IMG/VR virus record: IMGVR_UViG_3300037264_007554
Span: 1-64,000 of that record
Source: a virus
DNA length: 64,000 nucleotides
Reading direction: 5' to 3' (one strand)
Shown here: piece after piece, positions 7,277-48,866 of the stretch
Position numbering within the stretch: position 1 is the first letter of the stretch
Layout of the letters: each line of letters starts with the position of its first letter
Program-made: the position numbers and the translations under genes
Notes under the pieces: generated by a model
Database searches by the model: none
Told to the model about the DNA's origin: nothing
What the model saw: the letters and a program-made list of their open reading frames with translations, nothing else

Positions 7277-7284
7277 GACGAGTC

Positions 7285-28231: not shown

Positions 28232-28581
28232 AAGAGACGAGCACGTACTGCGATCACTGCCTCACGAGCAGCGGCAGAAGGGTTGCGACGGCCGTCTGCG
28301 TGATCTGCCAGGCGGATTGTTGCGCCGACCACATGTCCGGAGCGCTTCCGCGACTGGCAGCGCCTTACTTTCAATCCAGCCAGCGTCAGATCTGCGCACC
28401 CTGTGGAGCTACATCCAGCCAGATCATCCCTGAACCTCCGCCAGATCTCGAAGCAGCTTTGACAGCCTGGCAAGACAAGATCATCGAACAGATCCGGGCG
28501 CGCATCGCCGCAGCGGCCTTGGCCGCGAGCGAAAACCGCCCACCAAACGCCTGGGGCGTCCCCAAGTGGCCCACGAAATGA
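28228..28581 (+). CDS. Zn-finger (B-box-like) paralog B
   Basis: Same MKETSTYCD start as paralog A. Confidence 0.7.
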   Translation: MKETSTYCDHCLTSSGRRVATAVCVICQADCCADHMSGALPRLAAPYFQSSQRQICAPCGATSSQIIPEPPPDLEAALTAWQDKIIEQIRARIAAAALAASENRPPNAWGVPKWPTK

Positions 28582-28997
28582 AAAAAGAAGTGATCTTCTG
28601 CGATCTCTGTCCGGCAGGGCCTGCTGAAAAGCAGAACTATGCGATCTACAACTGCGTGATCTGCGGCCGGGACTGCTGTTCGAGCCACTCGGGTGCGAAG
28701 CTACCCCAGGTTATGTGCGTCGAGCCGTACCGGGCCACGTGCAGCGAGTGCGGCGCCGTGATGGATCCGAGCAAGTTCCCGCCGGTCCCCGAAGATCTGA
28801 TCGACGCGCTCTTTCGCTGGCAGGATTCGGTCATCGAACAGACGAAAGCCGAGATCGCCGCGCGAACTCTGCGCGAGGTCGCGGCTGCGGCTCCGCATGA
28901 TTTTCAAAGTGAAACCATGAAGGCTTACCGAGACCAACTGAAAGCGGCAGAGCAAGAAACTCCGCCCAAGATATTTCCGCGGAGGCAGATGTGGTGA
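28578..28997 (+). CDS. Zn-finger (B-box-like) paralog C
   Basis: CDLC..CVIC..DCC..H..CSEC. Confidence 0.7.
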   Translation: MKKEVIFCDLCPAGPAEKQNYAIYNCVICGRDCCSSHSGAKLPQVMCVEPYRATCSECGAVMDPSKFPPVPEDLIDALFRWQDSVIEQTKAEIAARTLREVAAAAPHDFQSETMKAYRDQLKAAEQETPPKIFPRRQMW

Positions 28998-31048: not shown

Positions 31049-31468
31049 ATGCTCGTCGAACAATTCAAGCAATTCGGTCTGCGTTGGATCGAAAAATCCA
31101 GGCTGCACAATGTCCCTGCGCACATGAAACGCAGCAAACTGATCCGCTCGGTCGCTGCGCTCGCTCCTAACGACTACGGCATCTCGGCCAACATCCACCG
31201 TAGACGAAGGGGCTTCACCTATTCCATCAACGGAAAACTGGGCAGAAAAACTCTGGGCTACAGCTTCCCCAGAGCGTACGAATCTGTCTTGCAGGCAGCG
31301 AGCGAAGAAGTGCTGAAGATGCTACACGAACAGATTGCATGCGCAGAGCGCACGCTCTCCGGCCAGGACAACCGCTACAACTCGATCTCTTACTCCCCCG
31401 GGCCGAACGGAACTGTTACAACGGTGCGTGATCCGGACGGAAACCTCGTGGGTCACAGTAGCGCGTAA
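31049..31468 (+). CDS. Paralog family II, member C
   Basis: EQF..FGL.W...LAPNDYGI...RRRRGFTY. Confidence 0.65.
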   Translation: MLVEQFKQFGLRWIEKSRLHNVPAHMKRSKLIRSVAALAPNDYGISANIHRRRRGFTYSINGKLGRKTLGYSFPRAYESVLQAASEEVLKMLHEQIACAERTLSGQDNRYNSISYSPGPNGTVTTVRDPDGNLVGHSSA

Positions 31469-32184
31469 TTCAGAAATCCCAGATTCACGATCCGGTAGTC
31501 ACGTGACCGTGCGTACACACCATCCCCCTCTCGCCCACCCCCGCGGTTGGTGTTCCCTTCAACGGCCCGCAACCCGGCCGCCTCGGCCGCCGTGAGAATC
31601 CCCATGTGCCCGCGACGGTTGCCGTGGTCGATGAGGAAAAGCGTGCCCGGCGGCAGGATTCTTAGATCCTCGAACGCGGCCTCCGGCGAGATCTTGACCT
31701 TGGCGGGGGCGCGCTCCCAGTGATCGAGTACGGAGCCCGTGCGCACGAGAGGGTTCGGCTCACCGAGCTTGTGGGCAGCCTCGTTGAAGACCCAGTAGCA
31801 AAAAGCCACGCACCAGGGATTGCCCTTCGGCAAGCCCACCGACGCCAGGTACTTCTCGACCTCGGGGCCGCAGTTCGGGCCTCCGGACTCCGTGACCCCG
31901 ATCTGGAGCTTGGCAATCCGCACGGCTGCGCCCGAGAGCGCGCTCCCAGGCGCCAGCACCGTCGCGGGAGCCGTGCGGAAAAGGGCGCCCCAGGAGACGG
32001 GGCCGACGATGCCGTCCGCCTCCAGGCCGCGCCGGGTCTGAAAAAGTCTAACCGCGCTCTCGGTCGCAGGTCCGAAATCGCCGTCGATCGCTATCGCGTC
32101 ACCAAACTGGACAAGACGGTCTTGAACCAGCTTGACGAGATCGGCGCGGTCGTCTCCGCGGCGAAGCGCCTTACCTGGGTACAT
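31453..32184 (-). CDS. Endolysin: PG-binding domain + CHAP amidase/peptidase
   Basis: DGDFGPATESAVRLFQ...DGIVGP; PWCVAF, GHMGI, VEGNT. Confidence 0.9.
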   Translation of the reverse strand: MYPGKALRRGDDRADLVKLVQDRLVQFGDAIAIDGDFGPATESAVRLFQTRRGLEADGIVGPVSWGALFRTAPATVLAPGSALSGAAVRIAKLQIGVTESGGPNCGPEVEKYLASVGLPKGNPWCVAFCYWVFNEAAHKLGEPNPLVRTGSVLDHWERAPAKVKISPEAAFEDLRILPPGTLFLIDHGNRRGHMGILTAAEAAGLRAVEGNTNRGGGREGDGVYARSRDYRIVNLGFLNYALL

Positions 32185-32528
32185 CAGCGGTCGATGGTGT
32201 GAACGAACCGGAACATCACCATGTAGAACGCAACCCCTGCGGAAAGGAAAAAGATGTCCAGTGGAGGGTTGGCGTTGTGCATCAGGATCGATCCAGGGAA
32301 CGCAGTTCCGCCCGTATCACAGATCGAAACGAGAAGCCTTGGATCGTTGAGCAGCGCCGTCCACACCGCGGGATCTGTGGTACTGAGCAAAGCCTTCAAC
32401 GGTCCCGCAGGCAGCGCCGCGAGAATGACCGACTGAAACAACAAGAAGTTTCCGGTATCCAAAGAAGCAGCGAACTTGATGCCGTAAGGCGTTGCGGACC
32501 CGGGTACGATGGTTACGCTTGATGCCAT
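32184..32528 (-). CDS. GPLK-family small virion protein 1
   Basis: Paralog of 42579-42950 and 43056-43442; leaderless promoter. Confidence 0.65.
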   Translation of the reverse strand: MASSVTIVPGSATPYGIKFAASLDTGNFLLFQSVILAALPAGPLKALLSTTDPAVWTALLNDPRLLVSICDTGGTAFPGSILMHNANPPLDIFFLSAGVAFYMVMFRFVHTIDR

Positions 32529-32565
32529 GCCTGAACTTTACCTCACACCGACGAAGGCACGCAAA

Positions 32566-32718
32566 TTAGCGGCCGCAGTTGCAGTCGCGCTTCCGGCGCA
32601 AGGGTGCCCCAGCCATTCTCTGCGGGTTTTTCTTCCCGCTCGACGCCGCAAGGCCGATGGCGGCCGCCAGACCTCCCAGGATCCCGACAGCGACAACGGC
32701 CTTGCCGGTATTCGACAT
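32566..32718 (-). CDS. Small TM protein with basic tail (MAGAPLRRKR)
   Basis: Single TM, 50 aa. Confidence 0.6.
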   Translation of the reverse strand: MSNTGKAVVAVGILGGLAAAIGLAASSGKKNPQRMAGAPLRRKRDCNCGR

Positions 32719-32771
32719 CGGCGCGGATTCCGTCGCACCAAAATTTTCTCTCCGTCTCAGAAACATACAGG

Positions 32772-33731
32772 TTAACGCCTTCGACTCATGCGGTTGCTCT
32801 CATCAATCCACTGCTTGACATCAGACAGGCTATCAAACTTTAGAAATCTTTCACCTGTGTAGATTTCGTAGTACCCGCTCGGATGCAGTTTGGTGATTAG
32901 CCTACCTTTGTACATTCTGTTCCCAGTCTCCCGACGCGATCCAGCAAACCCAGCACCGTCGATCGCATCCGAAGGCCCTTCGCCTCCGCCCTTTTTCACC
33001 GCGCGATAGACCAAGTACCCCACGGCGGTCACCCCGATGACGATGAGGAATGTGCTGATGAATCCGGCGGATGCTTGCGGAGCTTCACTCCCGATTCCCT
33101 TGCACGTCTTCGTAGCTTCCGCACGCGACACCTTGCCTGTGCTCATCACACGATCAACGCAATCGAGCTGCGTCTGCACATGAATGATTTCGGCTTTCGC
33201 AGTTTCGATGGCAGCGCCCGGCCAGTTCTTGATGACCACTGCCGTGAGCGTCACGGCCGTCACACCGAGTACGAACACGATGGCGATCCAGGCGAGCGCC
33301 GGGAGCGCACCAAGAGTACCTGCGAAAGCACCTGCCATCGGTGCGTTGTCAAGACAGCCGGGGATGGAATACACCGTGGGCATCACCGGCCGAGGCTTCG
33401 TCACCGTCGCCATGAGGGTGCCGCTCGAATCGTAGACGTACTGCACGATCTTGTAGCTCGGATTCTGCGCGAGAATCTGGTTGAACACCGACTGCGCGGC
33501 TGTCTGGTACGCCCTCACGGCGTTGTTGTGCGCCACCTGCACGTCGCACGGGATCGCTGCGCCGTACACGCGATCAATACGCGAAGCCTGGGCCTGCAGC
33601 ACCCGGTACAGGTCCGCGATCTGCCCGATTGCAACGTCGGCCGGGACTGCACCCGGCGGGAGCACCTGGGGCAAGATCGGCGCCTGTGAATCACCTGCCC
33701 CGAGCCTTCCGAGTGCTACCTGTTCACCCAT
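32772..33731 (-). CDS. Two-TM putative virion membrane protein
   Basis: Two TM helices, Cys pairs, several [LFM]xG motifs. Confidence 0.7.
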   Translation of the reverse strand: MGEQVALGRLGAGDSQAPILPQVLPPGAVPADVAIGQIADLYRVLQAQASRIDRVYGAAIPCDVQVAHNNAVRAYQTAAQSVFNQILAQNPSYKIVQYVYDSSGTLMATVTKPRPVMPTVYSIPGCLDNAPMAGAFAGTLGALPALAWIAIVFVLGVTAVTLTAVVIKNWPGAAIETAKAEIIHVQTQLDCVDRVMSTGKVSRAEATKTCKGIGSEAPQASAGFISTFLIVIGVTAVGYLVYRAVKKGGGEGPSDAIDGAGFAGSRRETGNRMYKGRLITKLHPSGYYEIYTGERFLKFDSLSDVKQWIDESNRMSRRR

Positions 33732-33733
33732 GG

Positions 33734-34192
33734 CTACTTGAGTCTCGAAAAGAGCACCGCAGAGCGGCCTGCGATCCCGGCCACCGTGGCACCGGTGCCG
33801 AAACCCAGTAGCGAGCCGAAGCCGACGTTGCGCAGACGATTGCTCGGATCTGAAAACAAGAACGCCGCACCGAACCCGAGGAGCGTGCAGCCTAGAATCG
33901 AAAATATCGCCAAATTTTTACCCGCGAACTCACCCGCGTACGTTTCGATTGCACCGAGCGCTCCGGCCGGAACGAGACGACCGTCCGGCAAGAACTTCCG
34001 CGGCTCATCGAAGTACGGGTCACGGGCCCAGCCTGACTCCGGATCCGGGGCTCCCGGGAAAGGCGTGCGCGAGACCATCACGGTCTCATCGGCTGGGACA
34101 AGCCGGAACGGCGATCTCCGCAACGGCCCGCCGCCGCTGTCCGGATTGTTGTCCGGGGAAACCCGAACTTGAGCACCGTAACCGAAGTGCAT
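33734..34192 (-). CDS. Membrane protein
   Basis: Two C-terminal TM helices. Confidence 0.65.
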   Translation of the reverse strand: MHFGYGAQVRVSPDNNPDSGGGPLRRSPFRLVPADETVMVSRTPFPGAPDPESGWARDPYFDEPRKFLPDGRLVPAGALGAIETYAGEFAGKNLAIFSILGCTLLGFGAAFLFSDPSNRLRNVGFGSLLGFGTGATVAGIAGRSAVLFSRLK

Positions 34193-34204
34193 GAACTTCC
34201 TCCC

Positions 34205-34702
34205 TTAGATACCGTTCGGATCGCGGTCTTCGTCCTTCGGCTCCATCAGATCAAAATGCACAACGAAAAGACTGCTACCCGACTCGACGTTGGGAGTCAG
34301 AAGCCTGATGGTGGGCCCATAACTCGGATCTGGGAAAGCCGTGGCACTGATGACAGGGCCGCCTGACTCGGTCGAATCAAGATTGTTGATGATGCTCCGC
34401 GAGAGAAGAAAGCCGGGGATGTTCGACACGTTGTTGTAGTGGTAGATCGAAAGTCGCCAGTTGAGCCGCGCGCGCGGAACAAACGCGGGGTTCGCCACAC
34501 CATTCAGGATCGCCGGGTTCGGAAACACAATCGGACGGCCGCGCCACTCGTAATACGCACCCAACGCACTCACAGTCAACGGAGTTACCGCAACGCCACC
34601 TGAACCGACAGGAGCCGAACGCGAGCCCGGCGCATTACGCACGGCGATGTCGAGATCGTTGCTTTCGGTCGGCATCTGGCAGATGTACGTTCGTGAAATC
34701 AT
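34205..34702 (-). CDS. Beta-rich putative virion (vertex?) protein
   Basis: Position in structural operon; alternating beta-strand pattern. Confidence 0.5.
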   Translation of the reverse strand: MISRTYICQMPTESNDLDIAVRNAPGSRSAPVGSGGVAVTPLTVSALGAYYEWRGRPIVFPNPAILNGVANPAFVPRARLNWRLSIYHYNNVSNIPGFLLSRSIINNLDSTESGGPVISATAFPDPSYGPTIRLLTPNVESGSSLFVVHFDLMEPKDEDRDPNGI

Positions 34703-34714
34703 GATGCAGCCATC

Positions 34715-35347
34715 CTATACCAGAGCCGACGCCCGAACCAAATTAGCGTCCCAGGCAGGGAGAGAAGCCAGATAGGGCTGCCCTGTCAGCTTGTCTATGA
34801 ACAGGCTTGGGTCGCGGCCTTGTTCCACAGCGCTGCTGGCCTGGACACCGCGGTACTGCAGGCGCAAGAGCCTCTCCAGGGGGACTTTTGACGGCCGCTT
34901 TTCCAACGCCCTGCGAACTCTATCGTACACCCCCCGCAAGATCTTTGTACCCCACTCGATGTTGATGTCCGGCTCGAACAGCATCGTCCGCGTGACACCC
35001 GCGGCCGCCAACGCCGGTCCGTGTGCCTTGGTGTTGATCTGCATCAGCCCAATCGACGCACCTTCCGGGAGCACGTGGTAGTCGCCCACACACGTCGGGT
35101 TGCCGCTGGACTCCGCCAAGATGGTCGCGACCACCCACTTCGCCGGAAGGCCCCGTGCGGCTGCCCATTTTCGCGCCAGGTTGATGATCTCGGGCGTGAG
35201 CTTGCGGGGCTTGCAATAGCCGCTTCGCGCCCTGGCGGCCGCCGCAGGCGTCGCCAGCATAAGCAGCAAGCCGAGCGCTGCAGCAGCCGCGATAATAGGA
35301 ACGGCTACCCGCGTTGCACGTGCAGGCCGCCGCGTACGCCGCCGCAT
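34715..35347 (-). CDS. Membrane-anchored lytic transglycosylase (SLT domain)
   Basis: AESSGNP, IGLMQIN, PDINIEWG; N-terminal Arg run and TM. Confidence 0.88.
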   Translation of the reverse strand: MRRRTRRPARATRVAVPIIAAAAALGLLLMLATPAAAARARSGYCKPRKLTPEIINLARKWAAARGLPAKWVVATILAESSGNPTCVGDYHVLPEGASIGLMQINTKAHGPALAAAGVTRTMLFEPDINIEWGTKILRGVYDRVRRALEKRPSKVPLERLLRLQYRGVQASSAVEQGRDPSLFIDKLTGQPYLASLPAWDANLVRASALV

Positions 35348-35349
35348 GG

Positions 35350-35808
35350 TTACACCCGACGCTCTCGGTCGCCGATGAGGATGGGAGCGATCTGCACACG
35401 CAACGGCAGCCAGGTTGGCGCGTCCGTCACAGCGTAGAGAGGCTGGTTGCCGGGAAGCACGATCTGGTAGGGCAAAAAAGCAGGAAGCGCATGGCCGTTG
35501 CTCACGCGCACACCTGCGTTCCCGACGAAAATCGAGAACCCGACGAACGGTGCAGAGAGCGTGATCAGACGCGACGCGCGTCCGGCCGGAACGATGAGCG
35601 TCGGCTCGACTCCGCTTCCGGCGAGCGCAGACTCAGGAATCACCTGCGCAGAAAAGAGATCTGTAGGAGGAGGTGCACCGGTCTCCGACCCGAGAACTTC
35701 GGCATTCGCCTGGCCGGGAATGCCGTTAGATGTCGAGCCAAGAGACTCGGCGCCCGGGTTCCCGAACGACCGCTCTCCCAGGATTTGCGCAACAGATCGC
35801 GGCGCCAT
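35350..35808 (-). CDS. Beta-rich putative minor capsid protein
   Basis: Structural operon; C-terminal beta-sandwich-like pattern. Confidence 0.5.
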   Translation of the reverse strand: MAPRSVAQILGERSFGNPGAESLGSTSNGIPGQANAEVLGSETGAPPPTDLFSAQVIPESALAGSGVEPTLIVPAGRASRLITLSAPFVGFSIFVGNAGVRVSNGHALPAFLPYQIVLPGNQPLYAVTDAPTWLPLRVQIAPILIGDRERRV

Positions 35809-35809
35809 G

Positions 35810-36298
35810 TTACGTGCGCGGAATCAACAGGGAGCCGATGAAATTGATGTCGACGGTGATCGGGTTGACGGTGTCGAGATTGTCGACCGTGATGGTGAGC
35901 GCGCCTCCCTTCGGCCGCACGACCCACGGAAACGTCAACTTCCAGGCACCGGTGTCGTCATCGACGAGCAGGGCAACCATGGCCTGGGTCTTCATCCAGT
36001 CCATGGTGAAGATCTGATCCTTGATGTTGATCCGCCAGTCGCGGAACGTGTGCGCCGGATCCTGACTGAACTTGATGCGCTCAACCTCGAACGGGTATTC
36101 GAGCGCGTTGCTGAAGTCCGTGCCGGTAAGCACTTGCCCCGACAACCCTGCGCCGATCACCGCGCTCGTGCGCAGCGCCATCGAAAACGGAAAGCGCACG
36201 ATGGGTTGATCGACGATAGGCTTGATGCGATCGATCACGCCTTTGATGAGCGGCGCGAGTTGGAGAAGACTGGCCTCGATTCCTTCTGATGGCGGCAT
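35810..36298 (-). CDS. Putative small single-jelly-roll capsid protein (162 aa)
   Basis: Adjacent to MCP candidate; ends PWVVRPKGGALTITVDN...ITVDINFIG; own leaderless promoter. Confidence 0.5.
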   Translation of the reverse strand: MPPSEGIEASLLQLAPLIKGVIDRIKPIVDQPIVRFPFSMALRTSAVIGAGLSGQVLTGTDFSNALEYPFEVERIKFSQDPAHTFRDWRINIKDQIFTMDWMKTQAMVALLVDDDTGAWKLTFPWVVRPKGGALTITVDNLDTVNPITVDINFIGSLLIPRT

Positions 36299-36357
36299 GG
36301 GAGTCATATTGCCGATTCTTGTGCAACGCTGCAAGTTACGTCCAGTCGCCTTGCCCC

Positions 36358-36399
36358 AAAAGAAAAACGCCCCGGCAGCTTTCGCCGCCGGAGCGTCCT
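36358..36399 (-). terminator. Intrinsic terminator after putative MCP gene
   Basis: GACGCUCCGGCGGC-GAAA-GCUGCCGGGGCGU followed by UUUUCUUU. Confidence 0.85.
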
Positions 36400-36430
36400 T
36401 CCGACCTTCGCTTTGCGTTGCCGCTTTGCG

Positions 36431-37192
36431 CTAGGTGACCGGACGCTTGACCAACCCTTCGAGGGTCTCGCGGACGTCGAAGCCCAGCGACGTCGCGGGC
36501 AGGCCGGTCCAGTCGGCGTAGCCCTGGATGAACGTCGGGCCCGCGCCCAGAGCGAGGCCGAGCGCCGCCTGCGGCCGCAGCTTCGCGGTGTACCCGATGT
36601 TCGGGCGCAACCAGATCGGGAGCACGAACGCCCCCTGATCACGCGGGGAGGGCGGACCGTTGTTCGCCACTTCCTGCGAGGTGTTCGTGGTGAACACGTG
36701 GATGCCCGACCCCTGGGGGTATTCCTCGATCGGCCCCTCGGACTGCACCTTCTGGTTCACAGTGAACTTGTGGAAGGTCTTCCGCATGAAGTCGAACAAC
36801 ACACCACCCGACGTGACGGCCGGATCGTAGCCGCCGACGCGAGTCGCGCGCGACAACTGCACCCCCGCCGTGTCCTGCAGCGCGAACGCTGCCACACCGG
36901 CCGCCGAGCCCATCTCGCGGACGATCTCGATCTGGATGCTGTAGATCAGCATCTCCCAGCCCTGCTGGAGCCCGTTGTCACCCGAACGCGAGATGTTGGT
37001 GTCCACCTCGGTCAAGATGCGGGAGCCGCCGGGGATCGGCGAACCGATGCCGCCGATGAAGGCGATGATCTCTTGCGAGTCATTGCCCTGGAACTCCACG
37101 GTGTGGAAGAGACGATCGTGCGTCCAGTCCGCGAACTGGATTGCGAACGGTACGCCTCGAACTCGAACTGTCAGTGTGCCCGTGTCAGCCAT
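36431..37192 (-). CDS. Putative major capsid protein (253 aa, jelly-roll type)
   Basis: Strong codon bias, A-rich RBS, structured 5' leader, own terminator, beta-rich sequence, surrounded by membrane/core genes. Confidence 0.6.
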   Translation of the reverse strand: MADTGTLTVRVRGVPFAIQFADWTHDRLFHTVEFQGNDSQEIIAFIGGIGSPIPGGSRILTEVDTNISRSGDNGLQQGWEMLIYSIQIEIVREMGSAAGVAAFALQDTAGVQLSRATRVGGYDPAVTSGGVLFDFMRKTFHKFTVNQKVQSEGPIEEYPQGSGIHVFTTNTSQEVANNGPPSPRDQGAFVLPIWLRPNIGYTAKLRPQAALGLALGAGPTFIQGYADWTGLPATSLGFDVRETLEGLVKRPVT

Positions 37193-37210
37193 TGTCGTTT
37201 CCTTTTTTGT

Positions 37211-37302
37211 TTCGGGGTCGGCTTTGCCGGTTTGGTCCCGAATACCTGGCATCGAACTGGTTTTGAGGCGCGACGACGGCCGATGCCAGACCGCCGTCGC
37301 GT
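37211..37302 (-). promoter_or_regulatory. Structured RNA leader (pseudoknot + hairpin) upstream of MCP
   Basis: 12-bp stem whose loop UGGCAUC is complementary to downstream GAUGCCA; second nested hairpin before the RBS. Confidence 0.6.
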
Positions 37303-37319
37303 CTTTCAGGACAGACGAA

Positions 37320-37817
37320 CTAGGACAGGAAGTTCGAGCCGAAGGCGCCGAGCAGCTCGACATCGGGGACGCCACCGGCGCCACTCATGTCTTGCTCGGG
37401 GACCACGGTCCCGAACATGCCGGTCGAGCCCGAGCCCGAATCCAGCAACTGCACGTCACCCGCCGGGACACCGGTGTTGGCACCGAAGTACCCCGCCAGC
37501 TCCTGCTCGGGCGTGATCACGCCGAGGTAGCCCTGCATCGGGCCACCCATGACCATGTCCTCGATCTGGCGGGGGATACCCACCAGCGCGGCCGTCGCCA
37601 GGCCCTGGATGCCCATGCGCCGGTAGCGCGGCGAGAACATCAGTCCCGCCGAGATCCCGCCGCCGAGCAACGTGCCGATCAGGCCCGCCCACTTGGTGAT
37701 GGGTTTGCCCTTGAAGAGCATTTTGGTCGCCAGCATGCCCACCTGAGCAGCGCCGCCGCCGATCAGCGGACCTGCCAGGTCTTCGCCGACTCCCTCGAAA
37801 TCTCCGAAGTCATCCAT
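37320..37817 (-). CDS. Gly-rich membrane protein with repeated G-x-[LF]-G motifs
   Basis: TM segments; GYLG, GYFG, GMFG, GAFG. Confidence 0.75.
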   Translation of the reverse strand: MDDFGDFEGVGEDLAGPLIGGGAAQVGMLATKMLFKGKPITKWAGLIGTLLGGGISAGLMFSPRYRRMGIQGLATAALVGIPRQIEDMVMGGPMQGYLGVITPEQELAGYFGANTGVPAGDVQLLDSGSGSTGMFGTVVPEQDMSGAGGVPDVELLGAFGSNFLS

Positions 37818-37877
37818 TGGTGTTGTTTCCTTCTTGAAAAATTTGTTGCTGGTTTGGGGTTTTGGGTTTCGCGAGAA

Positions 37878-37967
37878 CTAGCGGCGAGCGCGCTTGTTCT
37901 TCAGGCACTGGCCCTTGCGGCGGCCGCGCTTCACGATTCCGAACTTGCAGTGTCGCTTCCTTGCCAT
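37878..37967 (-). CDS. 29-aa Arg/Lys-rich peptide (putative DNA-condensing core protein)
   Basis: MARKRHCKFGIVKRGRRKGQCLKNKRARR; GAGGAG RBS; below the ORF-track cutoff. Confidence 0.7.
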   Translation of the reverse strand: MARKRHCKFGIVKRGRRKGQCLKNKRARR

Positions 37968-38012
37968 GCCGATCTCCTCTGTTGTTGGTTGATTTTCTCG
38001 GACAAAAATTTT

Positions 38013-38564
38013 CTAGCTGATCGCCGCCCGGGACGTGATGATCTGGCCGTCCTTGTCGCGCTGGTAATCGGCCGACGGGATGCTGGCGTAGCCGCGCCTC
38101 CGGAGCGCGTAGAGAGCCACGGCCGCGGCGCCCACGCCTGCGACTCCGCCCACGATCGCGCCGCGCGTGCGGCTGTCCGGCGCACCGAAGATCCCGCCGA
38201 GGATTCCGACGACCGCACCGACACCGGCACCGAGGATCCAGTGCTTCTTGTCGATCGTCCCGACCACTGCCCCTGCCTCGCCGAAGCCGGAGTAGCCGAA
38301 GCCGTTGATCGGCGCGACACCCGGCTGCATTGCCACCGGTGCATTCGTCACGCCCTGAACGTGCCGCTCGGAGATGTCCTGACGCGCGTTGATCGGATTG
38401 AACGGCGAGATGACGCCCGTTCGCATGACGAACTGAGGAATCGAATCCATGTCGCTGTGTCCGAATTGTCCTTGCAGCACCGTTGAACCTTTCCAGCGGC
38501 CAAAAGCAAAACGGCGTCCGACACGAGCCTTCTCGTGAGGGACGCCGTTGTCTACGGTCGCCAT
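38013..38564 (-). CDS. Two-TM virion membrane protein
   Basis: GFGYSGFG followed by two Gly-rich TM helices. Confidence 0.7.
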   Translation of the reverse strand: MATVDNGVPHEKARVGRRFAFGRWKGSTVLQGQFGHSDMDSIPQFVMRTGVISPFNPINARQDISERHVQGVTNAPVAMQPGVAPINGFGYSGFGEAGAVVGTIDKKHWILGAGVGAVVGILGGIFGAPDSRTRGAIVGGVAGVGAAAVALYALRRRGYASIPSADYQRDKDGQIITSRAAIS

Positions 38565-38682
38565 GGGTTGTGCCCCCTGCGAGAGCACTATGTACCAAGA
38601 GGATTACAGGGCTATTTCCCGGCTGTCAAATTAAGCGGACCGCTATTTTGCGTGCGTTGCAAAATCGGCCTACTGTTTCGAC

Positions 38683-38937
38683 ATGCGTGGCTCGATCTCC
38701 CAGAGCATCATCGGCAAACTGACCGAAGCCGAAGTTCCAGTTCCGTTCTGGAAATTCGCAGTACCGATCGTCGCAGGCAGCGTGGCCGGGAGAGGCGCCG
38801 CCTACCTCGTCAAGAACACATTCGTGGAATCATCCCCACGCACGCAAGAAACCGCCAGCATCGTCGCGGGCATTGCTGCCTTCTGGATCGTTGCTGGCGG
38901 CACCTGGATCGCACTGTCGCCGAAGCGCGGCGCCTGA
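38683..38937 (+). CDS. Two-TM small membrane protein
   Basis: Leaderless promoter TTGCGT-N17-TACTGT-N6-ATG. Confidence 0.7.
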   Translation: MRGSISQSIIGKLTEAEVPVPFWKFAVPIVAGSVAGRGAAYLVKNTFVESSPRTQETASIVAGIAAFWIVAGGTWIALSPKRGA

Positions 38938-38950
38938 GCGGCGCGCGCGG

Positions 38951-39124
38951 CTATCTGCGCTTACCGCGGCGGCCGGAGCGGCAGCGGTTGAAGCCCTTGA
39001 AGCAGCTTCGGCCGGTCTGCGGGCTCAGCGCGGGCCCCGACTTCAAGCAGCTCTTGAGCGCGGTCTTGCAATGAGCGGGAGCGCTTGCTCCTCCGCGGCC
39101 GGACTTTCTTCGACGACGTGCCAT
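38951..39124 (-). CDS. 57-aa basic four-Cys protein
   Basis: MARRRRKSG...APAHCKTALKSC...CFKGFNRC; GGAG RBS; paralog at 54618-54764. Confidence 0.7.
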   Translation of the reverse strand: MARRRRKSGRGGASAPAHCKTALKSCLKSGPALSPQTGRSCFKGFNRCRSGRRGKRR

Positions 39125-39136
39125 GGTGATTCTCCC

Positions 39137-40867
39137 TTACGCGGTTCTGAGACGCCGACGTGGCGCCGATCGGTATCCACTCTGCGACTTTTTTCCGCGG
39201 AACGCAAAATAGCCGATCGTTCCGAGACCGATCACGCCCACACCGGCGGCGATGTAGTGCCAGACCGGACGCTTCCCTTGTACTGCTTGCGTGGCTGCCT
39301 GCGCCTGTTCCACCTGCGCCGCAGCCGCCTGCGTCTCCTGCGTCGCCTGCGCGACTGCTTCTTTCGCTTGTGCTTCCTGTGCAGGTGTTGTCGCCTGCGC
39401 TGCAGCAGCCTGCGCTACAGCCTGCGCAGCCAGTGCCCGATCCATCTGTGCCTGTGCCGCTGCTTCCTGGGCCTTCGCCGCCGCTACCGCCTCCGCCTCC
39501 GCCCGTGCCTGCGCGGCCGCGGCCGCAGCCTGCTCTGCTGTGGGCAACTGCTCCGCGGGAACCGCCGGTGTCTGAGCAGGTGTCGTGGCCGTGGCCGCCA
39601 CGATCTGATCGGGCTCCGGAGAAGGCTTCGGAACTTCCGTCACCTGTGTCGGAGTCTCACCACACTCTGCAATCCTTGCCGCGAGGTTGTTCGCAATACT
39701 TTCAGCCTTGGCCGACACCTGCGCGATCGAGTACCCGGGGCTCAGACCGGTGTGAGGTAGCTTGGAACAGGGCCCCACGTCACTCAACGCTCTGTTCACG
39801 GCCGCCGTCGTCTTCGGACCGTTGATCCCGTCAACGGGAACAGTCAGACCTGGATCTTTTGCGAGCAGTGCAAGCTGCCCGAGGCTCTGCTGGATCTGTG
39901 TGATCGCTGCCGAGCGCGAAAGCCCAGGCTTCGGAGCTGCTGCCGGGAGCTTCGGCGGTTTCACACCGAGTTGTGCCAGATGTGCTTCGACGATCTTCGC
40001 AATGCTCTCCGCATTCATCACGATGTCGGACTGGCTCAACATGCCCGTACGAAACTGCGAAGGCGCAGTCGCGATGCTCGCCAACGCTCTGTTGACGGCG
40101 GTCGCCGTCTTCGGTCCGATCAAGCCGTCGGCACCGATCTGCAAGACCTTGTCGCCGAGCTTTTTGCCGAGCGCTGCGATTGCCTGCTGCAACCGCTGCA
40201 CGGTCGGCGACTTGGTAGGCTTGGACGGAGCCGGAGCCACCGGCTTCGTCACTATCGAAGCCTTCGCATTGGCCTCGCTCGTGATCGAAGTGACGATGTT
40301 CGGGTTCGTCAGATCCGCGGCCGTCACCTGACGCGAGTACACGCCATAAGACGACACGGCCTTGTTCACGGCCGCGACCGTCTTCGGACCGACAGCACCA
40401 TCGGCCGCAATCATCAAGGTCTTGTCCCCGATCTTGCTGCCGAGCGAACGCAACGCATTTTGCATCGCCTGCACCTGAGAGCGACTCGCGCCTGCGGCCG
40501 GTCTCTTCGGCGCGACGGCCGGTGCAGCGGCTCGCGGAGCCGTTGTCGTGAGCAACTGTTTCGACCCAGGAGCGCTCCGGCTCGCGGCAGCCGATTCGAT
40601 CGCGCTCGAAAGAGGAGCTGCATTTTGCGAGACGTTCAACGGCGTGAGTTTGCCGGTACGCAGACTGGCGGGCGCCGTCGTCACGTACTTCGTCATCGCG
40701 CGATTCACGGCCGCCGCGGTCGCGGGCCCTGTGATCCCGTCGGCGTTGACCGCGAGAGCGGTATCGTTGACTGCAAAACCGAGAAGCGCGAGAGCGCGTT
40801 GCAAACGCGCGACGGCTGGCGAAGAGGCAGCGCCGAAACCGTAACCCATGAAGTGCTGGGACAACAT
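39137..40867 (-). CDS. Four PG-binding-like repeats + Ala-rich stalk + C-terminal TM anchor
   Basis: Four LQ..L..LG...DG..GP.T..AVN.A repeats. Confidence 0.8.
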   Translation of the reverse strand: MLSQHFMGYGFGAASSPAVARLQRALALLGFAVNDTALAVNADGITGPATAAAVNRAMTKYVTTAPASLRTGKLTPLNVSQNAAPLSSAIESAAASRSAPGSKQLLTTTAPRAAAPAVAPKRPAAGASRSQVQAMQNALRSLGSKIGDKTLMIAADGAVGPKTVAAVNKAVSSYGVYSRQVTAADLTNPNIVTSITSEANAKASIVTKPVAPAPSKPTKSPTVQRLQQAIAALGKKLGDKVLQIGADGLIGPKTATAVNRALASIATAPSQFRTGMLSQSDIVMNAESIAKIVEAHLAQLGVKPPKLPAAAPKPGLSRSAAITQIQQSLGQLALLAKDPGLTVPVDGINGPKTTAAVNRALSDVGPCSKLPHTGLSPGYSIAQVSAKAESIANNLAARIAECGETPTQVTEVPKPSPEPDQIVAATATTPAQTPAVPAEQLPTAEQAAAAAAQARAEAEAVAAAKAQEAAAQAQMDRALAAQAVAQAAAAQATTPAQEAQAKEAVAQATQETQAAAAQVEQAQAATQAVQGKRPVWHYIAAGVGVIGLGTIGYFAFRGKKSQSGYRSAPRRRLRTA

Positions 40868-40915
40868 CGTTCTTCCTACGAGCCAGAGTACGACAGGCCG
40901 GGGGAGCCGCGCAAA

Positions 40916-41149
40916 TTAGGGCAGATTGGGTAGATTCGCAGGCAGGTAGCTACGGTTCACACGCACCTGCTTGATCTGGCCGCCTTGAATAGAAAGCGCG
41001 ACTTCTGCGTGCGCACCCTCTTTCATCAGGCCGCCGACGAGCTTGCTGTAGAGCGCCCAGAACGTCGGCAGATCTAGTTTCGGATCAGACGCGAGATTCC
41101 CCAAATTGTGAGCCCTCCCAGGAGCAGGCCGCCCAATACGGGAATCCAT
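40916..41149 (-). CDS. Small hypothetical protein (start uncertain)
   Basis: EVALSIQGGQIKQVRVN, reminiscent of DUF2292-like proteins. Confidence 0.45.
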   Translation of the reverse strand: MDSRIGRPAPGRAHNLGNLASDPKLDLPTFWALYSKLVGGLMKEGAHAEVALSIQGGQIKQVRVNRSYLPANLPNLP

Positions 41150-41259
41150 ACCGGCGTCGACGATACAACCGCGCCCGAAAGCTGTCCACCCGGAATCGGG
41201 ATGTCAAAAGAGCCGCCACCGGGGAGAAAAAGTCTTTTCGTGCCGCCCATGTTTTTCAT
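41074..41259 (-). CDS. Small C-terminal TM protein
   Basis: MKNMGG...QLSGAVV...TM; coupled to the protease gene. Confidence 0.6.
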   Translation of the reverse strand: MKNMGGTKRLFLPGGGSFDIPIPGGQLSGAVVSSTPVWIPVLGGLLLGGLTIWGISRLIRN

Positions 41260-41771
41260 TCCTTCGCCGCTGCGAAATCTTGGTACTTGGCCCGAGGAGG
41301 CTCGGCAGCGAACCGGCCGAGCCCGAGTGTGGTGTCGAGTGCAATCCAGCGCCTCGGCGCATGCTTCGGCACCCCCGCCATGCAGTAGATGTGATCCCAC
41401 GACGCGCCGGTGTTCGACGTGATCCGCCACTTCGCTTGAAAACCATTCTCCATCGCAAGCACAGCATTCAAAATTGACGCATCGTCACAATCACCTCCGC
41501 CAAACTGCAACGTCCGCAGCGCCGACTGAAAAGTGTCCTTGAAAGTGATGTCGCCGGTGTACCGCACGTTCTTCGTGACGAACTCAAAGATCGATCGCAG
41601 CTCACACACGTCGTCTCGGGCTGGACACTGGCGCGTCGCAAGCAGTCCGATCTGGCGCATTAACGGGTCGCGTAGTCCACCGTCCGCCAGCATCACGAGC
41701 CTGCGCAAATGCTTCACGCGATCTTCGAGGCTTCTGCCTACCTCGTGAGCTTGCAGAGTCGGGTTCGACAC
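41256..41771 (-). CDS. Transglutaminase-like cysteine protease (candidate virion maturation protease)
   Basis: VRY..D, GDCDD, HIY, W.ALD catalytic triad pattern. Confidence 0.85.
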   Translation of the reverse strand: MSNPTLQAHEVGRSLEDRVKHLRRLVMLADGGLRDPLMRQIGLLATRQCPARDDVCELRSIFEFVTKNVRYTGDITFKDTFQSALRTLQFGGGDCDDASILNAVLAMENGFQAKWRITSNTGASWDHIYCMAGVPKHAPRRWIALDTTLGLGRFAAEPPRAKYQDFAAAKE

Positions 41772-41844
41772 GCCTCTGAGAATGCTCCGGCCGCCCCTAC
41801 CCCGTCAAATTGCACCCGGCGGAAAAATTCCCTATGCTGGCGGC

Positions 41845-42507
41845 ATGATCAGCACGGACGACCAATTCGGCATCAGCTTCAAGAAACTTGCCAAGGGTGT
41901 CGGCAAGGGCATCTCGAAAGGCGCCAGAGGCGTCGCGAAGGGAGCCAAAGCCGTCGGCACAGTCGCCGTGAGCGCAGCACTTCTGCCGTTCAAGCTCGCC
42001 ATGCGGGCCGTCATCAAGCTCGCAATTCCTCTCGGACGCGCGCTCTGCATGGCACCGCCGCAGATTCTTTCTGTCGGCGCAGCCTCTGCGGGCGTCAGCA
42101 TGAACGTCGTGCCGATGTTCTGCACGGCCCTCAATCTGAAGAACATGGGAGAGGTACGGCGACTGCTGCCACCGGTGCTCAAGATCGCCGTCAAGGTTGC
42201 AGCCACCGGCGCCGTTCCCGGCATCGGACCGGCTCTGAGCGCGATTCGAGTCGTGCCAGGGCTGAAGCTCATCCCCGGCTTGAAGTTCCTGGCCGGAGCA
42301 GATGCAAATGACGATCTCGCGATGGCCGAAATCAATGGTTTCGCGTACGCACTCTCCGGTGTGAGCGATGAAGAGTTGGCGGAGGCGGTCGACGAAATGT
42401 CCGGATTCGGTGCCGCCACGCTCACCCCCAACGTCGGCTACGGTATCGGTATGGGAATCGGCGTCACGGCGCTCGCGGCCGGGCTGTTCTTGGCGTTCAA
42501 GGACTGA
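41845..42507 (+). CDS. Virion membrane protein with N-terminal amphipathic basic helix
   Basis: QFG-ISFKKLAKGVGKGISKGARGVAKGAKAVG; C-terminal TM; leaderless promoter. Confidence 0.75.
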   Translation: MISTDDQFGISFKKLAKGVGKGISKGARGVAKGAKAVGTVAVSAALLPFKLAMRAVIKLAIPLGRALCMAPPQILSVGAASAGVSMNVVPMFCTALNLKNMGEVRRLLPPVLKIAVKVAATGAVPGIGPALSAIRVVPGLKLIPGLKFLAGADANDDLAMAEINGFAYALSGVSDEELAEAVDEMSGFGAATLTPNVGYGIGMGIGVTALAAGLFLAFKD

Positions 42508-42578
42508 TCTCCGCCCTAATTTGCTTTTCGTTTGCAATCGGTTTTAAGTAAGGAAAGAAAGGTTCGGGAGAAAAACAA

Positions 42579-42950
42579 ATGGCAACAGCAGCAACCAAGC
42601 AATCCGCTTCCCAGAACAGCATCAAGTACGCTTTGTCGAGTACGGGTGCTGGGTCTCTCACGCAGACGACCCTGCTCGCAGACTGCGTGCCCGGGCCGCT
42701 CAAGTCCTTCCTTGCAGGATTGAACACGAATGCTCTCTGGGACGCTGGCTGGCCGGGGACCGCAGCGGCCGTCGCGAACGCGGGCAAACTGTCCGTCACC
42801 CTGACGCCGACGCTCTCCCCCGCCGCCGCCACCGCTGTCAATCCGAGTGCTTTCTTCTCCTCCATCACCAATCGGCACATCGACATCAATCAGGCGACCG
42901 AGGGCAACACCATCCTCGAACTCCGGTTCCACCCGACGCCCGAGCAGTAG
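42579..42950 (+). CDS. GPLK-family small virion protein 2
   Basis: SIKY...PGPLK...LELRFH. Confidence 0.7.
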   Translation: MATAATKQSASQNSIKYALSSTGAGSLTQTTLLADCVPGPLKSFLAGLNTNALWDAGWPGTAAAVANAGKLSVTLTPTLSPAAATAVNPSAFFSSITNRHIDINQATEGNTILELRFHPTPEQ

Positions 42951-42980
42951 GCGCGGTAGGCCAGAACGGCTGATACCGGA

Positions 42981-43016
42981 GACCCCGTTCCCTTTCCAAA
43001 GGGGGCGGGGTTTTCG
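42981..43016 (+). terminator. Intrinsic terminator
   Basis: ACCCCGUUCCCUU-UCCA-AAGGGGGCGGGGU plus short U run. Confidence 0.7.
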
Positions 43017-43055
43017 TAATTTGACAGATCAATCCCACCGGATGAAAATACGCTC

Positions 43056-43442
43056 ATGGCAACAGTACTCACGCTTCTTGCGAGATCCCAACACTCCTTG
43101 AAGTACCTTGCCGCTGATGATGGCGGAGATGGCGGTCCCCTGCTCGGCAAGGTGACCCAGGCCCAAATGTTCATCGACGCAGCCCCCGGGCCGTTGAAGA
43201 AACTTCTCGGAAAGATCTTCTCCGCTGCGCGGTGGACAGACCTGATAGGAGACGTCAACGCCAGTCCGCCCACGCCGCCGCAGTTGTCGGTGTACCTGAC
43301 TGTGGACCCCGAGAGTGTGGTGGTTACCGCCGCAGCAGCCGGTCTCTTCAACGACGGCGCGGACAACATTCTCGGTGCGCATTCCGAGGCCACAACACGA
43401 GCCATCGTCGAACTCCGATTCAATCACACCATCGACTTCTAG
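43056..43442 (+). CDS. GPLK-family small virion protein 3
   Basis: SLKY...PGPLK...VELRFNHTID; leaderless promoter TTGACA-N17-GAAAAT. Confidence 0.7.
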   Translation: MATVLTLLARSQHSLKYLAADDGGDGGPLLGKVTQAQMFIDAAPGPLKKLLGKIFSAARWTDLIGDVNASPPTPPQLSVYLTVDPESVVVTAAAAGLFNDGADNILGAHSEATTRAIVELRFNHTIDF

Positions 43443-43454: not shown

Positions 43455-43973
43455 CTAGCCGCCGACAATTTCGGCCGCGAGTCTGTCCGGCAGCCAGAGC
43501 CCGAATGACCAGCGCTCGGTCAGAGCATCGACGCAGTGCCAAGAATCCGGGCCGGTTTTAAACAAGTTCGCGTGCCCGTTTTTATCCAGGATGATTCCTT
43601 CAATCGTCTTGAAGTAGGAGCGGGCGTTCTCCGGCACTCGTACGACGTACGCGCGCCAGCCCGGCTTGTCTGAGTTGGTATGCCAACCCATGCCGCCGCC
43701 AGGCGGGTAGTAGTACATCCCGCGGGGAACAACACCTGGATAACAGGGATCCGACGAGTAGCTCGCGGTCAAACTGGCGCATACGGCGCATACGTTAAGA
43801 GAGGCTGTGCACAGATCTGTTTTTTGCGGCCCGTTCGCGATGTCGACTACGAGCGCCGCACGATCTCGTTCTCGGTTATTCCAAACGTGCATCACCGGTT
43901 GCACGATCAAGGATTGCCAAATCTGCATGAGCAGCGGATGCTGCTCAACAGGAACTTGCTGGACTTCCATCAC
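43455..43973 (-). CDS. 2OG-Fe(II)/cupin-like dioxygenase
   Basis: YPPGGGMGWHTN...WHCV...RWSFG. Confidence 0.65.
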   Translation of the reverse strand: MMEVQQVPVEQHPLLMQIWQSLIVQPVMHVWNNRERDRAALVVDIANGPQKTDLCTASLNVCAVCASLTASYSSDPCYPGVVPRGMYYYPPGGGMGWHTNSDKPGWRAYVVRVPENARSYFKTIEGIILDKNGHANLFKTGPDSWHCVDALTERWSFGLWLPDRLAAEIVGG

Positions 43974-44743
43974 GGTGCTTCGCAGATGGCGCCGAACGGT
44001 ATGTAATCGCAGGGTTCATCAAACCATCCCGTATCGTAGTAGAGAATGCAGTCTTCACCGTTCGGATTGCTCTTCGTCAAGTTGTTCGGCTGCCCCGGTG
44101 CCCAACCAACGTGCGCTACCGTCGTACCGTCGAGCCACACATATGTACCTTCAACCGCCCGATCTGAGAGCCCGATCCAATACCAAGAGGTAAATAGCTT
44201 GTGGCTGCGCAACCAGAGATCCTCGTCCATCGTCTCGATTTTTACGAGATGGTATCCAAGCGACAGGCACAACGCTTTTGATTCATCCCAAGAAATTCTG
44301 CTTTGAATGAACAGGTAGGCGTGGCCACCAAAGATGTTGTGTTGGCCGGGGCATCCGGCGCTGTCGTCTATCACACCGTTGCAGTCGTCATCCTTGCCGT
44401 TGCAGATTTCTGCCAAGGGGATACAAGCAGAAGTACCGGCCGCGCCTCCCGCTCCGGCCGTGCCTCCCGCGCCTCCCGCTCCGGCCGTGCCTCCCGCTCC
44501 GGCCGTGCCTCCCGCTCCGGCCGTGCCTCCCGCTCCGGCCGTGCCTCCCGCTCCGGCCGTGCCTCCCGCTCCGGCCGTGCCGCCCAGGCCCCCCGCGTCC
44601 GTCTCCTCGACCATCATCCGCCCGCGCACCACCCCGAAATCCGCCGACGCCTCGGCGTCTCCCTTCATGACCTCGCTCGGATCGACGCTATCCGCCCCGC
44701 ACGCAGCCACAAGACAAAACAGAATCAAGCCAAGACAACGCAT
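43970..44743 (-). CDS. Lipoprotein with Gly-rich linker, Cys-Asp motif and C-type lectin domain
   Basis: Lipobox LVAAC; GTAGAG repeats; EICNGKDDDCNG; WIGLSD, EG.YVW.DG, QPN, WFD..C. Confidence 0.88.
   Translation of the reverse strand: MRCLGLILFCLVAACGADSVDPSEVMKGDAEASADFGVVRGRMMVEETDAGGLGGTAGAGGTAGAGGTAGAGGTAGAGGTAGAGGTAGAGGAGGTAGAGGAAGTSACIPLAEICNGKDDDCNGVIDDSAGCPGQHNIFGGHAYLFIQSRISWDESKALCLSLGYHLVKIETMDEDLWLRSHKLFTSWYWIGLSDRAVEGTYVWLDGTTVAHVGWAPGQPNNLTKSNPNGEDCILYYDTGWFDEPCDYIPFGAICEAP
44444..44582 (-). repeat. 18-bp tandem repeat encoding GTAGAG (~7 copies)
   Basis: GCCTCCCGCTCCGGCCGT units on the + strand. Confidence 0.9.
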
Positions 44744-46215: not shown

Positions 46216-47085
46216 CTAGGCCGCGAGCGCGGCTGCCACCACACTCCCCGCCAGCCCTTCGATCCGGGTCTGGATCTCGGGCAGCTTGACGCCCAGGAGC
46301 GTCTCGTACGACCGGATCTTGTCGAGCAGCTTCTCGCAGCGGACCTTGCGGCTCGCCAGTGCCCGGTCACCGATGCCGCTCTCCTCGGTCCGCGCGGCCA
46401 GCTCGGCCTCGATCTCTTCGGCCGCGTCGCGCGCCTCGCGTGTGATCGAGTCTAAGATCGCCTCGACCGCTTCGTCGCAGTGCAGAGCCGGGATACGGAA
46501 CACCCGGTGCTCACCTGCGGCCTGGATCGCGCGGGCGACCTGCTCCCAGAACGCGACGTTCGGCCGGGGCACGAAGTAGATCCCGCCCGAATCCCGCAGG
46601 CTCGTGGCGGCCTTGCCGTCGGCCAGCTTGACCAACCACCCGCCGATGTCCGTCGAAGCGAGCGTCACGCGCGCCGCACGGAAAGCGGCCTGAATCTCGT
46701 TCGAGATCTTGGACGTCTCGACCGAGAGGGTGTTGATGTCCGTGCGGATGATCTGATACCCGACGTCCCAGCGCGCACGGATCAACTCCGTGGTGTTGAC
46801 GTGCCCGTCCTTCGTGTCGACCTCGACGAGACCCCACCCGCCGTTGAAATCGCCGCCCTTGATCTTGAACGCCTTCCGATTCGCGGATTCCTGGGAGACG
46901 ACCGCGCGACGGATCGCGACTTCGGCCGATGGCTCGCTCGGCAGCAGCGCCGCGTCGAGGCCCTCCGCCTGCCACGCCTGAGTTAGTTTCGCGAGCGTGG
47001 TGTCCCCCGACAGGCGCCAGTAGCTGATCGCGCCCGCGGTGTCCGTGTTGGTGACGATGAAGTTGCTGCTCTTGGTGTTGGTCAT
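46216..47085 (-). CDS. Conserved phage protein (DUF6744-like)
   Basis: GAISYWRL...GLD..LLP...RRAV...LRDSGGIYFVP; AGGAGG RBS. Confidence 0.65.
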   Translation of the reverse strand: MTNTKSSNFIVTNTDTAGAISYWRLSGDTTLAKLTQAWQAEGLDAALLPSEPSAEVAIRRAVVSQESANRKAFKIKGGDFNGGWGLVEVDTKDGHVNTTELIRARWDVGYQIIRTDINTLSVETSKISNEIQAAFRAARVTLASTDIGGWLVKLADGKAATSLRDSGGIYFVPRPNVAFWEQVARAIQAAGEHRVFRIPALHCDEAVEAILDSITREARDAAEEIEAELAARTEESGIGDRALASRKVRCEKLLDKIRSYETLLGVKLPEIQTRIEGLAGSVVAAALAA

Positions 47086-47111
47086 GTTCGTTGCCTCCTG
47101 TTTATCAGACG

Positions 47112-47125: not shown

Positions 47126-47129
47126 AACT

Positions 47130-48865: not shown

Positions 48866-48866
48866 G

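Follow-up and report, generated by a model that had tools for sequence, protein, structure and literature searches.

A candidate virion-formation module with two single-jelly-roll proteins in a putative tailless bacterial virus of ~95 kb

The stretch of DNA considered here (the window, 64,000 nucleotides) is the first two thirds of an IMG/VR virus record of 95,493 bp (IMGVR_UViG_3300037264_007554; G000 below). An earlier note, made from the letters of the window, proposed that positions 31453-43442 hold the virion module of a large non-tailed, membrane-containing virus with candidate single-jelly-roll (SJR) capsid proteins, and all the open reading frames (ORFs) that it listed were present at their coordinates. 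At the centre of this proposal are two genes, the larger of which codes for a candidate major capsid protein (MCP). Lengths are in amino acids (aa) or nucleotides (nt).

36431-37192 (-): 253-aa large SJR protein, candidate MCP
37193-37319 (-): untranslated leader of the 253-aa gene, 127 nt
36373-36387 (-): terminator-like hairpin and T-run, 44 nt past the stop of the 253-aa gene
35810-36298 (-): 162-aa small SJR protein with an N-terminal helix, candidate second capsid protein

Homologues of 250-262 aa align with the large protein from residue 1, hence the 253-aa start is correct. We found 197 homologues of this protein (60-98% identity), all of them unnamed and Pfam-free and many on contigs of 70-138 kb, and 113 homologues of the 162-aa protein, some on contigs that also bear a 253-aa homologue. 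The structures of the two proteins were predicted with AlphaFold2 from input alignments of 51 (253-aa protein) and 50 (162-aa protein) sequences. The 253-aa model, with a mean predicted local distance difference test score (pLDDT) of 77.5, is a jelly-roll-type beta sandwich made of one jelly roll with long loop insertions. The 162-aa model (mean pLDDT 88.4) is also a jelly-roll-type beta sandwich and carries a 25-residue N-terminal helix. In the predicted structures, the two major capsid candidates thus have one jelly roll each, as in the viruses with two SJR MCPs. The best structural matches of both models were capsid or virion proteins of SPV1, HCIV-1, HHIV-2, P23-77, PRD1 and SH1, those of the 162-aa model being virion chains of HCIV-1 and HHIV-2. 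The proposal that these two genes encode jelly rolls akin to the capsid proteins of membrane-containing double-stranded (ds) DNA viruses is therefore borne out by the models. A Foldseek search of BFVD with the 253-aa model gave weak matches to CRESS-virus capsids and nothing else. No homology between the 253-aa and the 162-aa families was found with hhalign, and the profiles of the two families (A1 and A2, respectively) had no match among all PDB sequences at expect values (E) of up to 10. Prediction of a complex of the two proteins gave a score of 0.02, which counts neither for nor against binding.

The 253-aa gene had also been described as strongly codon-biased, with a leader and a terminator of its own. 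The bias is real, within the top tenth of genes, but it is not extreme: in per-codon coding score, among genes of at least 100 aa, the 253-aa and 162-aa genes rank 9th and 10th. The leader and the hairpin with its T-run are in place. Terminator-like sites in the region are not above the shuffled expectation (13 vs 11.2), so that only the position of the hairpin is informative. Codon bias, leader and terminator-like hairpin together fit a major structural gene.

Gene calling on the full G000 record with a self-trained codon model gave 147 genes, which cover 80% of the sequence; no tRNA genes were found in it. CheckV put the completeness of G000 at 99%, and terminal repeats are absent. With the profile of the 253-aa capsid candidate, seven related IMG/VR records of 89-121 kb (G001 to G007) were retrieved, four of which are listed with direct terminal repeats (closed; 89-103 kb). 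The ends of G001, G004 and G007 share an exact overlap of 127 bp, which we read as a circular overlap made by the assembler. On its right side, G000 itself stops within the collagen-like (GAQGAQGAA)n repeat of a minus-strand ORF (94670-95491); after the repeat comes a beta-rich head domain of ~165 aa. At the left end of G000 (1-338, minus strand), an ORF that encodes a Pro/Ala/Glu-rich N-terminal piece runs off the start of the record. Since both ends carry minus-strand ORFs, the assembly probably broke within a single repeat-bearing fibre gene, and 1-338 and 94670-95491 are probably one gene across the junction of a circular map. No homologue of the collagen-like gene was found in the relatives, and closure of G000 through it is unproven. 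At this size the genome is several times larger than those of the isolates to which the earlier note compared it, as stated there. Gene content was compared between G000 and G007, G005, G001 and G004 (five genomes in all). The remaining features of the module, with transmembrane (TM) segments and sharing among these five genomes indicated, are the following.

31453-32184 (-): endolysin with a PG_binding_1 and a CHAP-like domain, not core
32184-32528 (-): small-family paralogue (115-125 aa)
32566-34192 (-): three variable membrane proteins (66, 319 and 152 aa), absent from most relatives
34205-34702 (-): 165-aa beta-rich core protein, common to all five genomes
34715-35347 (-): TM-anchored lytic transglycosylase (SLT), core, in all five genomes; PF01464, E 1.4e-10, TM segment at residue 14
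35350-35808 (-): 152-aa beta-rich core protein, common to all five genomes, candidate vertex or minor capsid protein
37320-37817 (-): Gly-rich hydrophobic 165-aa core protein, common to all five genomes (40-49% identity), candidate major membrane protein
37878-37967 (-): 29-aa Arg/Lys-rich peptide ORF
38013-38588 (-): core membrane protein with two TM segments
38683-38937 (+): 84-aa TM core protein
38951-39124 (-): 57-aa highly basic protein, net charge +18
39137-40867 (-): 576-aa peptidoglycan-binding protein (repeated domains), TM-anchored at its C-terminus
40916-41149 (-): small core protein (62-77 aa)
41256-41696 (-): transglutaminase-like cysteine protease, core; PF01841 Transglut_core, 34.4 bits, 67-70% identity in the relatives
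41845-42507 (+): 220-aa protein with three TM segments
42579-42950 and 43098-43442 (+): two more small-family paralogues

An 11-gene block, 34205-41696, is common to the five genomes. It consists of the 165-aa protein, the SLT, the 152-aa protein, the small and large jelly rolls, the Gly-rich protein, two TM proteins, the peptidoglycan-binding protein, the 62-aa protein and the protease. Its synteny is perfect in G007 and G005, and it is split in G001 and G004, where ~25-39 kb separate the two jelly-roll genes. The 253-aa protein is the most conserved of the shared genes (68-73% identity); apart from the protease, the others are at ~30-60%. Other than the 253-aa protein, gene comparison identified no protein of double-jelly-roll (DJR) size among the conserved core genes. 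The Gly-rich gene, just upstream of the 253-aa gene, ranks second in the genome by this per-codon score. Nine proteins of 31453-43442 have hydrophobic TM-like segments, close to the ten or so of the earlier note, and from them we infer an internal membrane. The tiny basic proteins, the anchored SLT and the cysteine protease of the earlier note are likewise there, the basic ones being the 57-aa protein, the Arg/Lys-rich peptide and the 66-aa protein (32566-32766, net charge +9). In the 576-aa protein, PF01471 (E 1.7e-17) and PF09374 (E 8e-17) were recognized, with the TM segment at residue 538. The 152-aa protein matched unnamed viral clusters in the ESM Atlas, with a sub-threshold lead to PRD1_P5_spike_N (0.88). 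The 115-125-aa paralogues, which have the motifs GPLK, LSVY and E(L/I)RFxHTxD(R) and members in G001, G004 and G005 as well, are candidates for minor capsid or vertex proteins.

The profile of the 253-aa family was run exhaustively against 1.84 billion cluster representatives, and 119 clusters, mostly of 195-275 aa, were recovered at E <=1e-3. A distant branch, on IMG/VR contigs of 30-69 kb and 65-69% GC, carries two tandem paralogues of the 253-aa protein, with a transglutaminase-like protease ~8 kb upstream:

contig L037, 9986-11446: tandem 253-aa paralogues
contig L036, 9998-12155: tandem 253-aa paralogues

The tandem arrangement fits a shell built from two related subunits, or a two-MCP shell, and the position of the protease ties this enzyme to the module. 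Thirty-eight distant members of the family had no match in PHROGs, and no Pfam or PHROG family was matched by the capsid candidates. By tblastn, no homologue of the 253-aa protein was found in 72,556 PLSDB plasmids or in 50,697 cultured phage genomes, and none of the 162-aa protein in the cultured phage genomes. Of 185,579 species genomes, a single one contains the 253-aa gene, on a 107.8-kb, virus-size contig in a metagenome-assembled genome (MAG) of Vicinamibacterales (Acidobacteriota), and one short contig with a homologue is labelled Spirochaetes. Bins are weak evidence of a host. That the host is a bacterium is suggested by the peptidoglycan enzymes, the homologues of the topoisomerase-like protein, being unnamed, gave no further clue, and the myxobacterial host suggested earlier found no support, the only binned relative being the Vicinamibacterales one. 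We did not find a description of such viruses in the literature searched, which is not proof of absence.

These distributions bear on whether the element is a virus at all. If it were a large plasmid or an integrative element, the jelly rolls, a fold common among cellular proteins, would be secreted, surface or compartment proteins. A conserved tyrosine recombinase, the swapping of replication modules between relatives and the lack of a packaging ATPase would suit such an element. However, the capsid candidate is missing from the plasmid collection and its one copy in a species genome lies on the virus-size contig; no relaxase, VirB4 or coupling protein is present, because the only P-loop proteins of G000 are a MoxR ATPase, a primase-helicase and SF2 helicases; the endolysin, anchored SLT, beta-helix spikes and collagen-like fibre are virus-like; and the top fold matches are capsid proteins. 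We hold a non-viral origin to be quite unlikely.

We then consider the hallmark genes of tailed phages. PHROGs was applied to the longest predicted proteins of G000, including most of those of at least 240 aa. It recognized a primase-helicase, two helicases, PolA, exonucleases, RuvC, methylases, a topoisomerase-like protein, endolysins and PAPS-reductase-like proteins, but no terminase, portal, HK97 capsid, tape measure or baseplate protein. The large proteins of G001 and G007 gave replication and glycosyltransferase genes and no large terminase subunit (TerL), portal or HK97 MCP. Six-frame searches of G000 and the four closed relatives with TerL_ATPase (PF03354), Phage_capsid (PF05065) and Phage_portal (PF04860) gave nothing above threshold, and neither did Terminase_6N (PF03237) in G000, the closed G001 and G004 and two unclosed relatives; together, the TerL searches cover G000-G004, G006 and G007. 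For the portal and the HK97-fold capsid, the absence of matches refers to sequence searches (PF04860, PF05065 and PHROGs). Among the unexplained G000 proteins of at least 250 aa, none has a P-loop. By these sequence searches, the statement that the window has no terminase, portal or tail genes holds for the full 95.5-kb record as well. The counter-evidence named earlier, an HK97 MCP, a terminase or a portal encoded on the rest of the contig, was found neither there nor in the four closed relatives.

A highly divergent tailed phage (Caudoviricetes) could still give this picture if its hallmark genes were undetectable or lay on a missing part or a second segment, in which case the jelly rolls would serve in decoration, cement or receptor binding. 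In the ESM Atlas, automated taxonomy assigns look-alike clusters mostly to Uroviricota, the N-terminal domains of two spike-like proteins weakly match Phage_cement_2 and a head-decoration PHROG (E 0.004-0.006), HK97 folds may evade sequence searches, and G000 is not closed. But TerL, the most detectable phage gene, is absent from the four closed relatives as well as from G000 by PHROGs and two Pfam TerL families, and the unexplained large proteins offer no P-loop in its place. Moreover, portal and HK97 capsid matches are lacking together with tape-measure, tube and baseplate genes, and conservation above every other gene, as seen for the 253-aa protein, would be unusual for a decoration protein. 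We consider a tailed phage very unlikely.

A packaging ATPase of the FtsK/HerA type, for which a search of the rest of the contig had been advised, was not found in G000 by Pfam (PF01580 and PF01935), by a six-frame custom profile of the HerA-type ATPase of the relatives, or by motif. Such a search did succeed in three closed relatives, G001, G004 and G006, which encode a HerA/DUF87-type P-loop ATPase of ~580 aa:

G001, 27125-28882 (-): HerA-type ATPase
G004, 6410-8134: HerA-type ATPase
G006: HerA-type ATPase

Its N-terminal domain passes the Pfam DUF87 (HerA) threshold, shows weak matches to TraG/TrwB families and is followed by winged-helix-like domains, and a distant version is present in G002. 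A partial PHROG match to 'terminase large subunit' in G001 was rejected, the protein being this HerA-type ATPase. The gene is absent from the closed G007, and the unclosed G003 and G005 gave no match; missing from G000 and G007, it is not a universal core gene. The only ATPase common to the closed genomes is the MoxR-type AAA+ protein (54-60% identity), which is not known to act as a packaging motor.

The lack of a motor and the many membrane-protein genes could also suit a virus of another architecture, pleomorphic, enveloped or non-icosahedral, in which the jelly rolls would be spikes, fusion proteins or parts of a nucleocapsid. The two-protein complex is unsupported, and the orientation of the jelly rolls cannot be read from monomer models. 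Against this, the folds match shell proteins of icosahedral viruses with an internal membrane best, and not spikes, conservation as high as that of the 253-aa protein is in keeping with a subunit of a tightly packed lattice, and the tandem paralogues of the distant relatives resemble two-MCP systems. We regard another architecture as unlikely.

Outside the module, several further genes are conserved, listed here by position in the record.

2826-4967 and 5405-7276 (+): two paralogous spike-like proteins of 713 and 623 aa
46216-47118 (-): DUF6744 protein (Pfam), predicted highly expressed
47570-48895 (-): DUF2201 protein (Pfam), metallopeptidase-like N-domain and vWA
48867-50036 (-): MoxR-type AAA+ ATPase (Pfam)
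54811-56862 (-): 683-aa coiled-coil, Gln/Pro-rich protein, in all five genomes (29-37% identity)
54811-57644: cluster of the conserved 683-aa protein with its 135-aa and 107-aa neighbours
82685-83104: 139-aa beta-rich core protein, in all five genomes, two copies in G007

The minus-strand cluster 46216-50036 (MoxR ATPase, DUF2201/vWA protein, a 147-aa protein and the DUF6744 protein) shows 37-60% identity with G001, G004 and G007, and its MoxR ATPase and DUF6744 protein had no tblastn match in cultured phage genomes. The 683-aa gene has the top total coding score in the window. Its product combines a long coiled coil with an N-terminal domain and with tracts rich in Gln/Pro and Ala/Pro, and it may serve as a scaffold or as a size-determining protein; the cluster with its two neighbours matches no known family. 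The spike-like pair has a common N-terminal domain of ~110 aa, followed by Gly/Thr/Ala-rich, probably beta-helical bodies, and the versions in the relatives reach 1,200-1,960 aa. Searches of PDB sequences, by profile or with a single sequence, gave nothing meaningful for A4, for the DUF6744 and 683-aa proteins or for the 623-aa spike. In the ESM Atlas, the 139-aa core protein matched unnamed viral clusters, with a sub-threshold lead to XepA (0.90) and a lead to a Bbp16-type beta sandwich; it is possibly of penton type. Also shared are a 263-aa core protein, the tyrosine recombinase and a handful of small proteins encoded around 76 kb and 82-85 kb. A 246-aa protein (43970-44710, minus strand) has (AGGTAGAGGT)n Gly-rich repeats followed by a Cys-rich domain, which by eye looks like a C-type lectin; a weak PHROG tail-fibre match was its sole match.

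BLASTP at E 1e-5 matched none of the replication proteins of G000 (PolA, primase-helicase, helicases and exonucleases) to a protein of the relatives, which carry PolA, helicase and primase sets of their own. Hence the lineage is defined by its virion module, and the virion and replication modules have different histories.

From these results we think it likely that a tailless dsDNA virus of bacteria, with a circular or circularly permuted genome of ~95 kb, forms its virions from the module 34205-41696 and the variable additions that extend it to 31453-43442. The virus would probably contain a membrane, and its shell would be built of two SJR proteins, like those of P23-77, SH1, HHIV-2 and SPV1. 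Enzymes for bacterial lysis and entry, along with spikes and a collagen-like fibre, also speak for this reading. In the model that we propose, the shell would consist of two unrelated SJR proteins, the 253-aa one with its loop insertions and the 162-aa one with its N-terminal helix, over a virus-encoded membrane that would bear the Gly-rich protein of 165 aa together with some eight more TM proteins. The vertices may be formed by small beta-rich core proteins, the two beta-helix spike proteins and the collagen-like fibre. At entry, the TM-anchored SLT and the TM-anchored protein with peptidoglycan-binding repeats would breach the peptidoglycan (cf. the virion transglycosylase of PRD1), and the separate endolysin would serve exit. 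Processing or cross-linking of virion proteins would fall to the transglutaminase-like protease, the conserved MoxR AAA+/vWA pair may have a chaperone role in assembly, and the DNA may be condensed by the many small basic proteins, as in SPV1. It is tempting to speculate, from the missing packaging ATPase, the top SPV1 match and the many small basic proteins, on a condensation-type assembly. By rough volume scaling from PRD1 and SSIP-1, a particle of ~120-130 nm would be needed.

Several observations weigh against our proposal. Neither G000 nor the closed relative G007 has a packaging ATPase of any known viral type. The Foldseek E values of the 253-aa model are weak (5e-3 in PDB, 5e-4 in BFVD) and its TM-scores are low. 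In G001 and G004 the jelly-roll genes lie apart, the spike N-terminal domain has its weak likeness to Phage_cement_2 and the head-decoration PHROG, and G000 is not closed, its break falling in the collagen-like repeat.

It is possible, and we suggest it tentatively, that these genomes belong to an undescribed lineage, at the family level or above, of bacterial dsDNA viruses of 70-130 kb with a tailless two-SJR shell over a membrane, which at least in the subclade of G000 would have dispensed with the A32/FtsK-type ATPase and use the MoxR/vWA pair and basic DNA-condensing proteins instead. To our knowledge, the tailless viruses of bacteria and archaea with jelly-roll capsids have genomes of ~10-45 kb. 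A large genome of a prokaryotic virus is taken to be that of a tailed HK97 phage, and automated pipelines label these contigs accordingly. If the proposal is true, there would be a widespread group of tailless phages of 90-130 kb, by far the largest non-tailed prokaryotic viruses known and a bridge between the small SJR viruses (P23-77, SH1, SPV1) and the biology of large-genome viruses. Jelly-roll shells would then be seen to accommodate large genomes in bacteria too, and not only in the giant viruses of eukaryotes. A blind spot of virome classification would be exposed: the group comprises 197 close homologues of the capsid candidate, 119 clusters (at 50% identity) and several closed genomes. 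It would also have to be asked how a virus with neither a terminase nor an A32-type ATPase encloses ~95 kb of DNA. As a marker, the profile of the 253-aa family is directly usable.

The Helvetiavirae/Halopanivirales (P23-77, IN93, SH1, HHIV-2 and HCIV-1), recently placed in the realm Singelaviria, are like the present virus in having two separate SJR proteins (here candidates of 162 aa and, with loop insertions, 253 aa, near VP16/VP17 and VP7/VP4 in size), many small membrane proteins and a circular genome map. They differ in genome size (~95 kb here against 16-31 kb) and in their hosts, which are thermophiles or halophiles, whereas the present sequences come from many ordinary metagenomes. 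Two defining traits of the group were not found: the A32/FtsK-HerA ATPase, which is a defining feature of Varidnaviria and Helvetiavirae, is absent from G000, and so is the block of ATPase, small MCP and large MCP of P23-77 and SH1, the order here being large then small with no ATPase nearby. No sequence homology to VP16/VP17 or VP7/VP4 was detected, a divergence that is usual within the group. Of the affinity to Varidnaviria put forward in the earlier note, the jelly-roll folds thus stand, but not the FtsK/HerA ATPase or the gene block. In SPV1 (Portogloboviridae), a shell of jelly-roll proteins surrounds a membrane and a nucleoprotein core, and no packaging ATPase is known; such an ATPase is absent from G000 too, and small basic proteins are many, but SPV1 has an archaeal host, a ~20-kb genome and no sequence similarity to the present virus. 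PRD1 and PM2 have genomes of 10-15 kb, and SSIP-1 one of ~44 kb. With respect to Tectiliviricetes and SSIP-1, the jelly-roll proteins described here match nothing in cultured phages by tblastn, and PRD1 and PM2 differ further in their one DJR MCP and A32-type ATPase. The likeness to PRD1, PM2 and SSIP-1 lies in the tailless form, the internal membrane, the virion transglycosylase of PRD1, the vertex spikes and the collagen-like motif in a spike or fibre, features that the present virus would share. A PRD1-type architecture with two MCPs is known for P23-77, IN93 and SSIP-1 (PMC6356626).

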